Origin: an uncultured Bacteroidales bacterium
Lineage (GTDB): Bacteria; Bacteroidota; Bacteroidia; Bacteroidales; Paludibacteraceae
Assembly (NCBI GenBank): GCA_902784585.1
Contig: CACZVM010000011.1
Coordinates: 5,824 to 69,823, forward strand
Length of the DNA stretch: 64,000 bases
Direction of reading: 5' to 3'
In this document: in pieces, positions 27,624 through 31,254 of the stretch
Layout: every line of letters starts with the position of its first letter
Position numbering within the stretch: position 1 is the first letter of the stretch
Translations under genes and position numbers: made by a program
The notes under the pieces: model-generated
The model's input: the letters and a program-made list of their open reading frames with translations, nothing else
Databases searched by the model: none
Told to the model about the DNA's origin: nothing

Positions 27624-28814
27624 ATGGCTAGACTGCTGATCATAGATGACGAGCGCGGGATACGTAACACGCTGCGCGAGATACTAAGTGACGAAGGACA
27701 CGAGGTGGATGTTGCCGAGAATGGCAAACAAGGACTGGAGATGGCGCAAGCGAAAGCGTACGACCTGATCTATTCTGACATTAAGATGCCTGAGATGGAC
27801 GGCATGGAAGTGCTTAAAGCGCTGAAGAATGGTGAAAATGATGAAAATGGTGACCAGGTTGACCTGCTTAATGGTGAAGTCCCTATTGTGATGATTAGTG
27901 GGCATGGAGATGTGGAGACGGCGGTGCAGGCACTCAAGTTAGGGGCATATGATTTTCTGCTGAAGCCCCTGGATCTGAATCGTATATTGATCACGACGAA
28001 GAATGCGCTGGAGAGCAAGAGTCTGAAACAAGAGACCAAGCAGTTGCGCAAGCGCGTTGCGGCAAAGGGTCCGCAGATGGTAGGAGAAAGCCAAGCTATC
28101 ACCCGCGTACGCGAGATAATTGATAAGGTAGCGCCGACGGAGGCACGCGTGTTGATCACCGGTCCGAACGGCACGGGTAAGGAAGTGGTGGCTCATTTGA
28201 TTCACGAGAACTCGGCCCGTGCACAAGGTCCGATGGTGGAAGTGAACTGTGCGGCCATCCCGAGTGAGTTGATAGAGAGTGAGTTGTTCGGCCACATGAA
28301 GGGTTCGTTCACCGGTGCGGTGAAGGACAGGGCAGGTAAATTTGAGCAGGCGGACGGCGGCACGCTGTTTCTGGACGAGATAGGCGATATGAGTCTGGCT
28401 GCGCAGACGAAGGTGCTGCGGGCACTGCAGGAGAGCGAGATCACACGCGTCGGTTCGGACAAAGCGATCAAGGTGAACGTGCGCGTGCTGGCGGCAACGA
28501 ACAAAGATCTACAGAAAGAGATCGAGAAAGGTAATTTCAGAGAAGACCTCTTCCACCGCTTGAATGTCATTCCTATTCACGTACCGGCACTGAATGAGCG
28601 ACTGGAAGATATCCCGTTGCTGGTAGATTATTTCGTCGAACAGATATGTGCGGAACAAGGCATTGCGGCCAAGACGTTTGATGACGCGGCAATTAAGGCG
28701 CTGCAGGGGAAAGAATGGACGGGCAATATACGTCAGTTGAGAAACGTGGTGGAACGGCTGATTATTTTGGCGGGCAGTAAGATAACAGCGGAAGATGTAG
28801 AATTATACGCATAA
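27624..28814 (+). CDS. Sigma-54-dependent response regulator (receiver + AAA+), no C-terminal HTH
   Basis: The receiver is LLIIDDE...DIKMPEMDG...VMISGHG. The AAA+ domain has GPNGTGKE, the GAFTGA-like loop (GSFTGAV) and FLDEIG. The ORF ends right after the sensor II region (NIRQLRNVVERL). Confidence 0.85.
   Translation: MARLLIIDDERGIRNTLREILSDEGHEVDVAENGKQGLEMAQAKAYDLIYSDIKMPEMDGMEVLKALKNGENDENGDQVDLLNGEVPIVMISGHGDVETAVQALKLGAYDFLLKPLDLNRILITTKNALESKSLKQETKQLRKRVAAKGPQMVGESQAITRVREIIDKVAPTEARVLITGPNGTGKEVVAHLIHENSARAQGPMVEVNCAAIPSELIESELFGHMKGSFTGAVKDRAGKFEQADGGTLFLDEIGDMSLAAQTKVLRALQESEITRVGSDKAIKVNVRVLAATNKDLQKEIEKGNFREDLFHRLNVIPIHVPALNERLEDIPLLVDYFVEQICAEQGIAAKTFDDAAIKALQGKEWTGNIRQLRNVVERLIILAGSKITAEDVELYA
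27828..27879. repeat. AATGGTGA(A) triple direct repeat inside the receiver-domain coding region
   Basis: AATGGTGAAaatgatgaaAATGGTGAccaggttgacctgcttAATGGTGAA, which encodes NGENDENGDQVDLLNGE. Confidence 0.6.
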
Positions 28815-28855
28815 TTCTTAATTTTTAATTTTTAATTGAATTTAATTTCATTAAA
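28814..28855. repeat. AT-rich heptad micro-array (AATT family) spanning the recF TTG start
   Basis: TTCTTAA TTTTTAA TTTTTAA TTGAATT TAATTTC ATTAAAT. Confidence 0.6.
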
Positions 28856-30008
28856 TATTCTCAACTATCGCAATATACGCGAGGCGAGTTTGGAGTTCAG
28901 TCCGAAGCTCAACTGCTTTGTGGGCTTGAACGGGCAAGGCAAGACGAATGTGCTGGACGCTATTTATCTGCTGAGCTTTGCAAAGTCGTCATTCACCAAT
29001 CAGGACAGCCTGAACATCACCCATGGAGAGGAGATGGCGATGGTTCAGGGCGTTTATAATACAGCCTACCCCCAGCCCCTCCCTGAAGGGAAGGGAGATA
29101 ATCGCACAGTTATCTCTTGTGGACTGCGCAGAGGAGTTAAGAAGCAGTTCAGGAAGGACAAGAAGGATTATCAGCGGTTGATTGATCATATCGGATTGAT
29201 TCCGCTGGTGATGATCAGCCCGAGTGACCAACAGTTGATCGATGAGGGGAGTGACGAGAGAAGGCGGTTTATGGACGTGGTGATCAGTCAGTTGGACCGA
29301 AAATATCTGGATTGCCTGACCAAATACAACGCCCTGCTGAAACAACGTAATGCGCTGCTGAAACAACTTGCGGAGAAGCCTACCCCCGACCCCTCCCTGA
29401 AAGGAGGGGAGATTGCGGAGGATCTATTGGAGGTATTAGAATGGCAGATGGTGGAACCGGCAGAGTATATTTTTAAAGCAAGAACAAAGTTCTTTGAGGC
29501 TTTCAACCCCTATTTTGCGAGGGCATACGCACAGATTAGCGACTCAGCAGAGATTCCGAATCTCCGCTATATTTCTCAGCTCCAAGACCGCGATCTGCGA
29601 GAGGCGTACGTCAAGACGAGGCAACGGGATTTGATACTCGGCTGGACGTCGCAGGGTATCCACAAAGATGACCTTGATATGCGTCTCGGCGAGTACCCGC
29701 TCAAGCAAGTCGGCTCGCAAGGTCAGCAACGCACGTTTGTGTTGGCACTCAAATTGGCACAGGCTTTGTATTTAGGAGAATCAGGAATCGGGAATCAGGA
29801 ATCAAGACAAAAACCAATACTCTTGCTGGATGATATTTTTGACCGATTGGACAGCGAACGGGTAGAACGAATCGTGGAGATGGTACAAGGCGACGATTTC
29901 GGACAGATCTTCATCACCGATACCGACCGCCAGCACCTCACTGATATCCTCCGTCCAAATGAAAATGCGCGCATTTTCCATGTGAACGAAGGAGTAATTA
30001 AGAATTAA
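28836..30008 (+). CDS. recF: DNA replication and repair protein RecF
   Basis: It has Walker A (GLNGQGKTNVLDA), the signature SQGQQRT and Walker B (LLLDDIF). The TTG start is immediately preceded by an in-frame TAA. Confidence 0.85.
   Translation: MNLISLNILNYRNIREASLEFSPKLNCFVGLNGQGKTNVLDAIYLLSFAKSSFTNQDSLNITHGEEMAMVQGVYNTAYPQPLPEGKGDNRTVISCGLRRGVKKQFRKDKKDYQRLIDHIGLIPLVMISPSDQQLIDEGSDERRRFMDVVISQLDRKYLDCLTKYNALLKQRNALLKQLAEKPTPDPSLKGGEIAEDLLEVLEWQMVEPAEYIFKARTKFFEAFNPYFARAYAQISDSAEIPNLRYISQLQDRDLREAYVKTRQRDLILGWTSQGIHKDDLDMRLGEYPLKQVGSQGQQRTFVLALKLAQALYLGESGIGNQESRQKPILLLDDIFDRLDSERVERIVEMVQGDDFGQIFITDTDRQHLTDILRPNENARIFHVNEGVIKN
29067..29102 (+). repeat. 35-bp C/G-rich palindromic element, copy 1, in frame in recF
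   Basis: TACCCCCAGCCCCTCCCTGAAGGGAAGGGAGATAAT, which encodes YPQPLPEGKGDN. Confidence 0.7.
29381..29414 (+). repeat. 35-bp C/G-rich palindromic element, copy 2, in frame in recF
   Basis: TACCCCCGACCCCTCCCTGAAAGGAGGGGAGATT has a perfect 7-bp stem CCCCTCC/GGAGGGG. It encodes TPDPSLKGGEI. Confidence 0.7.
29778..29806. repeat. (GGAATCR)x4 heptad array in frame in recF
   Basis: GAATCAG GAATCGG GAATCAG GAATCAA G, which encodes ESGIGNQESR. Confidence 0.7.
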
Positions 30009-30030
30009 AAATTAAGAATTGAAAATCATT
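29996..30030. repeat. AATT-family heptad array spanning the recF stop and the GHL10 TTG start
   Basis: TAATTAA GAATTAA AAATTAA GAATTGA AAATCAT. Confidence 0.7.
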
Positions 30031-31254
30031 CAACGATACATATTAGTCCTTTGTCTTTTGTCCTTCAGCGTAGCGGTCTTTAGTCAAACGATATCTTTCC
30101 GTGGGGCATGGATAGCAACGGTGGCGAATATCGACTGGCCGACTCCCGAAGCCGTAGGAAACGATTCGCTGCAAAAAGCAGAGATGACGTGGATTCTCGA
30201 TTCGCTGGAGAGTCTGGGGATCAATGCCATCATCTTCCAAGTGCGGCCTACGGCCGATGCGCTGTACAAGAGTGAGTTTGAACCGGTGAGTCACTGGCTT
30301 GCAGGAAAGCAGAGCTTTCCAAATGAAGAATTAAAAATTAAAAATTACGAATTCTGGGATCCGCTTGAATGGACCATTGAGCAGGCACATTCTCGTAACA
30401 TGGAAGTACATGTATGGCTGAATCCGTATCGGGTAAATCTGGCAAAGACAGACACGTCCATGATTTGCGCAGACCACGTCTGGCGCAAGCATCCCGAGTG
30501 GTTTTGGGAGTATAATAAACAATGGTACTTTGACCCGGGATTGGACGTCACACGCGAGTGGATTTGTACTATTGTACAAGACATCGTCACGCGCTATGAT
30601 ATCCAAGCCATTCACATGGACGACTACTTCTACCCGTACCCGGCAGGCGGCAAGCTTCTTCCGGACACCAAGACTTTTGCTGCGCATCCGCGCGGTTTTA
30701 CCGACATCCGCGATTGGCGACGCAATAACGTCAACCTCGCCATCCAGGACATCAGCCGCACCATCCATGAATGCAAGCCGGAGGTGCAATTCGGCATCTC
30801 GCCTTTCGGCGTGTGGCGTAATGCGAAGGTGGATAGCACGGGCAGCGCGACGCAGGCCGGCATCACCAATTACGACGACCTCTACGCCGACATTCGCCTG
30901 TGGATTCAGCGGGGCTGGATCGACTATGTGCTACCGCAACTCTACTGGGAGATAGGCAAACGCGTCGCCGACTACGAAATCCTTGCCCACTGGTGGGCCA
31001 ACGAAGTGCGCGGTACCCGTTGCCGCCTTTATATCGGCATGGCGCCCTATCGCCTTGAGAACGCTTTGCCCAAATCCCCGTGGGGGAAGGGCAACGAGAT
31101 AGGCCGCCAGATGCGTCTCAACCGCACAATCCCCGAGATCACCGGCGAGTGTTTCTATTCAACGAGGCCGTTGTTGCGAAATCCGAGAGGTGTTTGCGAC
31201 ACGATACGACTCATTTACAAAGACGACAGGGCTGAAAATTTACCCTGGGAATAA
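30019..31254 (+). CDS. Glycosyl hydrolase-like 10 (GHL10/DUF187) family protein
   Basis: A signal peptide is followed by FRGAWIATVANIDWP and a TIM-barrel-like pattern. The start codon is TTG. Confidence 0.65.
   Translation: MKIIQRYILVLCLLSFSVAVFSQTISFRGAWIATVANIDWPTPEAVGNDSLQKAEMTWILDSLESLGINAIIFQVRPTADALYKSEFEPVSHWLAGKQSFPNEELKIKNYEFWDPLEWTIEQAHSRNMEVHVWLNPYRVNLAKTDTSMICADHVWRKHPEWFWEYNKQWYFDPGLDVTREWICTIVQDIVTRYDIQAIHMDDYFYPYPAGGKLLPDTKTFAAHPRGFTDIRDWRRNNVNLAIQDISRTIHECKPEVQFGISPFGVWRNAKVDSTGSATQAGITNYDDLYADIRLWIQRGWIDYVLPQLYWEIGKRVADYEILAHWWANEVRGTRCRLYIGMAPYRLENALPKSPWGKGNEIGRQMRLNRTIPEITGECFYSTRPLLRNPRGVCDTIRLIYKDDRAENLPWE
30326..30355. repeat. AATT-family heptad array in frame inside the GHL10 gene
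   Basis: GAAGAATTAAAAATTAAAAATTACGAATTC, which encodes EELKIKNYEF. Confidence 0.65.

Follow-up and report, generated by a model that had tools for sequence, protein, structure and literature searches.

In-frame copies of a short hairpin-containing repeat in recF and other genes of rumen Bacteroidales

The extreme case of in-frame insertion of repeats into protein-coding genes is represented by the Rickettsia palindromic elements (RPEs), studied by Ogata et al. in 2000 (as summarized in PMC10969869 and PMC3733652); the 2024 review that gives them this place (PMC10969869) does not mention Bacteroidetes. Di Nocera et al. (2013) defined the GTAG- and CGTC-tagged REP superfamilies and listed copies inside genes of several phyla, often genes for replication and repair, such as uvrA in O. 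terrae, recB in Xanthomonas, and uvrB in R. conorii (PMC3733652). According to the same work, GTAG repeats are found in Proteobacteria, Cyanobacteria, Chloroflexi, and the PVC superphylum, and Bacteroidetes carry only the CGTC type. REPINs are extragenic and occur together with a RAYT gene that is present in a single copy and has the repeat on its flanks (Bertels and Rainey 2011, PMC3116915). Finally, MITEs occasionally form in-frame fusions (PMC10969869).

The repeat described here was recognized in a window of 64,000 nucleotides (the whole stretch of DNA that was analyzed) from the metagenome-assembled genome (MAG; G000, 1.63 Mb, 79% complete) of an uncultured Bacteroidales bacterium. The original prediction, made from the sequence of the window, noted two strings of the same orientation inside the recF gene, described them as an in-frame palindromic element, likened them to RPEs, and stated that no equivalent was known from Bacteroidota. 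The last statement is too strong in general, given the intragenic GTAG and CGTC repeats of several phyla; repeats of the GTAG type are not reported from Bacteroidetes in that survey (PMC3733652). A literature search for the element sequence, its complement, and the encoded peptides found no relevant paper. Both strings are indeed located on the forward strand of a 390-aa open reading frame (ORF), at positions 29067-29102 and 29381-29414. The true unit, however, begins 4 nt earlier, with AGCC at positions 29063 and 29377. The loose ends of metagenomic contigs set the unit boundaries at approximately 29063-29098 and 29376-29412. The features of the locus are as follows.

28836-30008, forward strand: coding sequence of recF, the host gene, 390 aa (ORF and NCBIfam TIGR00611)
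29063-29098, forward strand: element copy A, 36-nt unit AGCCTACCCCCAGCCCCTCCCTGAAGGGAAGGGAGA (from loose ends at 29063 and 29097-29099 and from copy comparison)
29368-29375, forward strand: 8-nt direct repeat TTGCGGAG upstream of copy B
29377-29412, forward strand: element copy B, 36-nt unit AGCCTACCCCCGACCCCTCCCTGAAAGGAGGGGAGA (from loose ends and copy comparison)
29390-29409, forward strand: hairpin of copy B, CCCCTCC (29390-29396) and GGAGGGG (29403-29409) with the loop CTGAAA (from folding)
29413-29420, forward strand: 8-nt direct repeat TTGCGGAG downstream of copy B

The gene is intact. Its frame is kept, as had been predicted, its product scores 308.5 bits against the RecF equivalog model TIGR00611 (cutoff, 172), and the Walker A (GLNGQGKTN, residue 30), signature (SQGQQRT, residue 294), and Walker B (ILLLDD, residue 328) motifs are unbroken. 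Copies A and B, identical at 33 of 37 positions when aligned from AGCCT, lie on the same strand and use different reading frames of the element; copy A is translated as (T)AYPQPLPEGKGD and copy B as (K)PTPDPSLKGGE(I), with junction peptides such as GVYNTAYPQPLPEGK. Their composition contrasts as sharply with that of the surrounding gene as the original prediction held, with G+C contents of 66.7% and 64.9%, respectively, versus 47.5% in the remainder of recF, and the 12-mer core has two matches in the window versus 0.16 expected. Each copy had been expected to form a hairpin. This is the case for copy B, whose perfect 7-bp stem folds at −7.4 kcal/mol as DNA (z = −2.6; 3 of 200 shuffled sequences were equally stable), but not for copy A, whose imperfect hairpin, with one C·A mismatch, is no better than those of shuffled sequences (z = +0.18).

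Comparison of 44 copies yielded the 36-nt consensus AGCCTACCCCC-nn-CCCCTCCCTGAA(A/G)GGA(A/G)GGGAGA. Exactly 36 nt, or 12 codons, is both the modal length and the length of the best-preserved copies. The unit consists, in this order, of the 5′ arm AGCCTACCCCC, a spacer of 2 to 3 nt, a C/G hairpin of 7 to 8 bp with a loop of 4 to 6 nt (TGAA or CTRAAA), and the tail AGA; it is a hairpin preceded by a C-rich arm rather than the full palindrome that had been proposed. The 5′ arm is the complement of GGGGGTAGGCT, which holds a GTAG-like tag, so that on the complementary strand GTAG is found ∼8 nt away from the stem and the reverse complement reads as hairpin, spacer, and GGGG-GTAG-GCT. Four of the six reading frames are free of stop codons throughout the unit, and these four are the ones used in genes; the other two are closed by TGA or TAA in the loop (one forward frame) and by TAG from the GTAG tag (one reverse frame). 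The encoded peptides contain 18% Pro, 16% Gly, and 11% Ser, and the forms AYPxPLPEGKG and PTPxPSLKGGE recur among them. Four of the eight stem pairs have changed on both sides, and none of 500 shuffles had as many cells of this kind; however, pairing still amounted to 79% when the register was slid by one, and the register of each window had been picked by maximizing the number of pairs. Covariation of the hairpin can therefore be considered supportive but modest.

The prediction that both segments are lineage-specific insertions in surface loops was examined in a set of 19 RecF orthologs with 51 to 86% identity, 18 from the same genus and 1 from another family. The protein alignment showed neither segment in any of the 19. 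At the DNA level, site B displays a clean net gain of 27 nt relative to the five closest relatives. Site A is 42 nt longer than in a relative that lacks a loop there, but the length of this loop varies across the genus from zero to ∼20 extra residues. Hence, lineage specificity holds for both segments, whereas site A, being hypervariable in length, does not represent a clean insertion into conserved sequence. The possibility that the hypervariable loops of the relatives are decayed copies was rejected, as a search of the 19 relatives' recF loci with the element hidden Markov model (HMM) gave no significant match and no remnant. Judging from these alignments, copies A and B probably entered recF after the split of this species from the sampled relatives. 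The location in surface loops is well supported. Both segments fall into gaps (11 and 10 residues) in the alignment with the solved RecF structure, PDB 5Z67. An AlphaFold model computed from the aligned orthologs is of good overall confidence (pTM, 0.83); in it, site A forms the turn of a β-hairpin in the ATPase head, with pLDDT values below 50 at residues 79 to 87, and site B is the turn between two long helices of the arm domain (residues 155 to 180 and 190 to 235), with nonhelical residues 181 to 189 and a mean pLDDT of 57 for the block. RecF is accordingly predicted to tolerate both inserts.

The element is not confined to recF. A profile search with nhmmer detected 13 units in this genome, 12 of which are located, in both orientations, inside uninterrupted ORFs of 208 to 1,120 aa. 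The genes that carry them code for RecF (two units), Mfd (two inverted doublets with the perfect 6-nt ends AAGCCT/AGGCTT), GltX, MnmE, TsaC/Sua5, Fmt, a DUF58-vWA protein, and an OPT transporter. The sole intergenic unit (contig C2, position 70884) forms a perfect CCCCTCC/GGAGGGG hairpin that is directly followed by the T run CTTTTTAT. No pair of inverted units separated by 0.5 to 3 kb was seen among the 13. The copy in MnmE is orthologous in this genome and in the related genome G011, absent from five other relatives, and differs between the two carriers by paired changes in the stem. Activity of the family thus both preceded and followed the split of these two species. The MnmE site, like site A of RecF, is hypervariable in all relatives, so that the element may have taken the place of older loop sequence instead of adding to conserved sequence.

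At the level of the genus, which belongs to the rumen Bacteroidales and is listed at NCBI as Paludibacteraceae bacterium or uncultured Bacteroidales, a degenerate core pattern (with an estimated ∼0.002 chance matches per genome) detected the element in 74 of the 121 genomes, at 0 to 47 copies each; the reversed pattern, used as a control, had no match in any of them. Such in-frame, loop-located copies in unrelated housekeeping genes bear out the predicted RPE-like behavior. Outside the genus, matches were confined to 4 of 149 genomes in a sampling of the order and to 4 of ∼398 in a sampling of the phylum. A strict restriction to one genus was nevertheless rejected, given the matches in MAGs labeled Prevotella sp. 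and Sodaliphilus and in the isolate Prevotellamassilia timonensis An873: either the family extends to a few other gut Bacteroidales at least, or some of these labels are loose. The intragenic share of the copies is 84 to 92% (in G062, a 100%-complete relative, and in this genome, respectively). In G062, 27 of 32 copies fall within open frames of at least 150 aa versus 87% of random positions at the same loci; in the named Bacteroidales MAGs, the corresponding values are 38 of 54 copies versus 88%. The host ORFs in other Bacteroidales MAGs represent diverse genes with strong Pfam matches. An enrichment in DNA repair genes, hinted at by RecF, by Mfd, and by the published examples (PMC3733652), was considered but not supported, as the 34 host ORFs are diverse and only 2 of them are of the SMC_N type.

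Short tandem repeats occur in the vicinity of the element. In a number of Bacteroidales MAG loci (L029, L043, L054, L058, L083, L094, L095, L129, and L137), tandem arrays of 7- to 9-mers, such as GTGAAAA, GAAACACYT, AAGGTCT, GGTGATT, and GTTGAGT, directly follow the element, and the two may travel together. Head-to-tail arrays of the element itself, with CTTTTCAAA or heptamers as spacers, are seen in L058 and in L060 and L136 from P. timonensis An873; in metagenomic contigs, the end of one unit can be joined to the start of the next through a single G. Within the window, recF carries a third lineage-specific in-frame segment, GESGIGNQESRQK, at positions 29778-29804. It is a heptamer microarray (GAATCAG, 3.9 repeats), is common only to this genome and its closest relative, G005, and falls into a low-confidence loop (pLDDT below 50 at residues 320 to 322). 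AT-rich heptamer arrays adjoin or overlap the start and stop of recF (TAATTTT, 3.7 repeats, 28812-28837, and AATTAAG, 3.6 repeats, 29996-30026), and a GTCCTTT array (2.9 repeats, 30046-30065) is found in the N-terminal, signal peptide-like part of the gene that follows. One metatranscriptomic contig (run X25) is identical to recF over positions 28960-29057 and then continues into a GTTGAGT-rich heptamer insert in place of copy A; at the strain level, site A is a hotspot at which different repeats are found. In the GltX ORF (contig C3), which hosts the element, the catalytic domain contains the internally repetitive peptide KKSEIINHKSEIES, which looks like an insertion of a tandem microarray.

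The exact 19-nt core of the element is also found in Chloroflexota (Anaerolineae) and Planctomycetota (Gemmata, Frigoriglobus, and Singulisphaera). The matches in these two phyla have the arm CCTACCCCC at the same distance even though it was not part of the query; core matches in Streptomyces and Actinomadura have unrelated flanks. The motif of ∼40 nt that is shared by Bacteroidota, Chloroflexota, and Planctomycetota consists of CCTACCCCC, a spacer of 3 to 6 nt, and CCCCTCCCTGAAGGGAAGGG. The form found in Chloroflexota and Planctomycetota is often a complete long palindrome that ends with GGGGGTAGG, in which GTAG is base paired. Only 17 of 39 copies from these phyla are located in long open frames, versus 89% of random positions, so the intragenic habit is specific to the Bacteroidales lineage. 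At several Anaerolineae loci (L031, L062, L106, and L111), the element forms clustered doublets that consist of ACCTAMCCC, hairpin, spacer, inverted hairpin, and GGGTTAGGT; several such doublets can be found within a few hundred bases, in genomes without a Y1 transposase.

The likely explanation for these data is that the two recF segments belong to a short dispersed repeat, which has proliferated in one rumen Bacteroidales genus and persists inside genes, most probably as selfish or neutral DNA. With a unit of 12 codons, insertion keeps the downstream frame. New copies would land approximately at random relative to genes, and those that fall into structured regions or bring in stop codons would be cleared by purifying selection; the intragenic share of the remaining copies would then match the coding density. 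The surviving copies are indeed found in surface loops or hypervariable segments, with the host genes intact. Copying might be carried out by a trans-acting enzyme that recognizes the hairpin on single-stranded DNA or might be mediated by microhomology. Among the 44 copies, there is no general target site duplication (the longest flank match averages 3.23 nt versus 3.14 ± 0.13 nt in permuted flanks), and the flanks show a preference for a purine upstream and T or C downstream. Copy B of recF is the only one of the 44 with an 8-nt flank match, for which the chance over 44 copies is estimated at ∼0.02. No parent insertion sequence (IS)-like composite was seen in the contigs examined, and no pair of filled and empty alleles was found; we infer mobility only from the distribution of the copies.

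That the segments are an assembly or binning artifact, or an ancestral part of RecF, can practically be dismissed. The source genome is an incomplete MAG and its unitigs are broken by short repeats, as an artifact would have it, but unitigs from the source run, a bovine gut metagenome, overlap exactly across both elements. Contigs from a run of a different, later (2025) study cover positions 28836-29097, 29068-29412, and 29383-29470, and the same junctions are seen in two metatranscriptomic contigs, one that spans copy A with both of its flanks (29032-29177) and one that begins in the upstream flank of copy B and runs through this copy (29218-29411); an ancestral origin is contradicted by the absence of the segments from RecF orthologs. 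In four metagenomes, the depth at the two elements is ∼6 to 40 times that of the flanks, with heterogeneous loose ends and sharp boundaries. The metatranscriptomic contigs suggest no RNA-level removal of the element, with DNA carryover in the libraries being possible. The presence of the peptide-coding inserts in RNA-derived contigs, together with the intact host genes and the recurrence of the same few peptides, could also be taken to mean that the peptides serve these proteins as functional modules under selection, for example as flexible linkers or a binding motif. This is highly improbable, however, since the same DNA is read in four combinations of frame and orientation that give unrelated peptides, it is the DNA that is conserved, the hosts have no functional relation to one another, and the sites are low-confidence loops. 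Somewhat less remote, albeit still quite improbable, is that the element is primarily a terminator-like repeat of intergenic regions, similar to SPRITE of pneumococcus, with its intragenic copies as by-products. The perfect hairpin and T run of the single intergenic unit fit such a role, and some copies in other MAGs adjoin A or T runs (e.g., L029, L086, L060, and L136), but the intragenic majority has no T run, and with intergenic copies in the minority, termination cannot explain the distribution of the family.

Of greater weight among the alternatives, although we consider it unlikely, is a bona fide GTAG-type REP or REPIN that is copied by a RAYT acting on the hairpin and the GTAG tag in single-stranded DNA. 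The reverse complement of the unit has the expected order of parts, single units coexist with inverted doublets, whose ends in Mfd are the perfect AAGCCT/AGGCTT and which are found in other MAGs as well, general target site duplication is absent, and GTAG repeats, including intragenic ones, are known from Chloroflexi and from the PVC superphylum, to which Planctomycetes belong (PMC3733652), i.e., from the other phyla that have the motif. By definition, however, the tag of such repeats is terminal and unpaired, whereas here it lies at a distance from the stem and is base paired in the full palindromes of the other phyla; the copies are, furthermore, predominantly intragenic and not extragenic. 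Mobilization by a RAYT or another Y1 transposase was rejected because the occurrence of Y1 does not follow that of the element in this genome, in 19 genomes of the genus selected to span high and zero copy numbers, or in 7 carriers from other phyla; the control genomes gave the expected response in this search. The Y1_Tnp domain (PF01797) is missing from this genome, from the complete relative G062 (31 copies), and from most other tested high-copy genomes. The high-copy genome G053 has one marginal match with a stop codon, and the clearest match among the tested genomes of the genus is in a genome with no copies of the element. Three element-bearing Chloroflexota genomes also lack PF01797, and the Y1 loci that were fetched have no element core within ∼1.5 kb.

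The occurrence of a near-identical motif in three phyla is not accounted for by a simple expansion within one genus. A bolder reading, which we put forward as speculative, is that the element is a frame-neutral, 12-codon mobile hairpin, nearly verbatim in all three phyla, that spreads without a RAYT, by means of unrecognized trans-acting machinery or horizontal transfer, and that in one rumen genus has adapted to an almost wholly intragenic life, rewriting the surface loops of essential proteins. If so, the 8-nt repeat that flanks the young copy B of recF would be a footprint of the insertion mechanism.

If the preferred reading, a selfish or neutral repeat persisting in genes, is correct, the notion of selfish DNA inside protein-coding genes, best known from Rickettsia, extends to abundant free-living Bacteroidales of the gut and rumen. 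The case is unusually clean: the unit spans 12 codons, four of its frames are open, and genes are not depleted of copies. The element accounts for Pro/Gly-rich, lineage-specific loops of core proteins, as well as for breaks in short-read assemblies, and its copies in RecF, Mfd, GltX, MnmE, Fmt, and other proteins provide a natural catalogue of sites that tolerate insertions. With no RAYT present and a nearly identical motif in two further phyla, the element raises the question of how such tiny repeats get copied.

Among the known systems, the element resembles RPEs in being a dispersed repeat with hairpin potential that is found in frame in many unrelated housekeeping genes without breaking them, encodes short loop-forming peptides, varies in copy number among related species, and has no known dedicated transposase. 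It differs from them in its host, which is a free-living member of the rumen Bacteroidales and not an obligately intracellular alphaproteobacterium, and in its unit, 36 nt as opposed to ∼100 to 150 bp in RPE-1, with an unrelated sequence, set apart by described tags and lengths. The short RPE-4 and RPE-6 have a CGTC tag (PMC3733652); in the present element, the tag is GTAG-like, the ends are AGCCTAC...GGGAGA, and CGTC is absent. Its intragenic fraction, in addition, equals the coding density.

With the GTAG- and CGTC-tagged REPs, the element shares a short stem-loop with a tetranucleotide tag, the coexistence of single units and inverted dimers, some intragenic copies, and an occurrence in repair genes (two units in RecF and two doublets in Mfd); its 7- to 8-bp stem and 4- to 6-nt loop are within the REP criterion (a stem of 5 to 13 bp and a loop of 2 to 20 nt). 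Here, however, the tag is ∼8 nt from the stem, there is no RAYT, most of the copies and not a minority are intragenic, other MAGs show no general enrichment in repair genes, and 0 to 47 copies per genome is low for a REP-like family. Similarly to the REPIN-RAYT systems, it has inverted doublets that are able to form one long hairpin, no target site duplication, and lineage-restricted copies, but neither the extragenic location nor the repeat-flanked RAYT of those systems is found here. Like MITEs, it is a small nonautonomous repeat, with perfect 6-nt terminal inverted repeats in its doublets; its single units, with AGCCT and GGGAGA ends, have no second terminal repeat, there is no general target site duplication, and it is far shorter. 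As the element has neither the sequence and tag of RPEs nor the RAYT association and extragenic location of REPs, it is classed under in-frame palindromic repeats generally: RPE-like in behavior and GTAG REP-like in form, it belongs to the palindromic repeats that live in frame inside genes.
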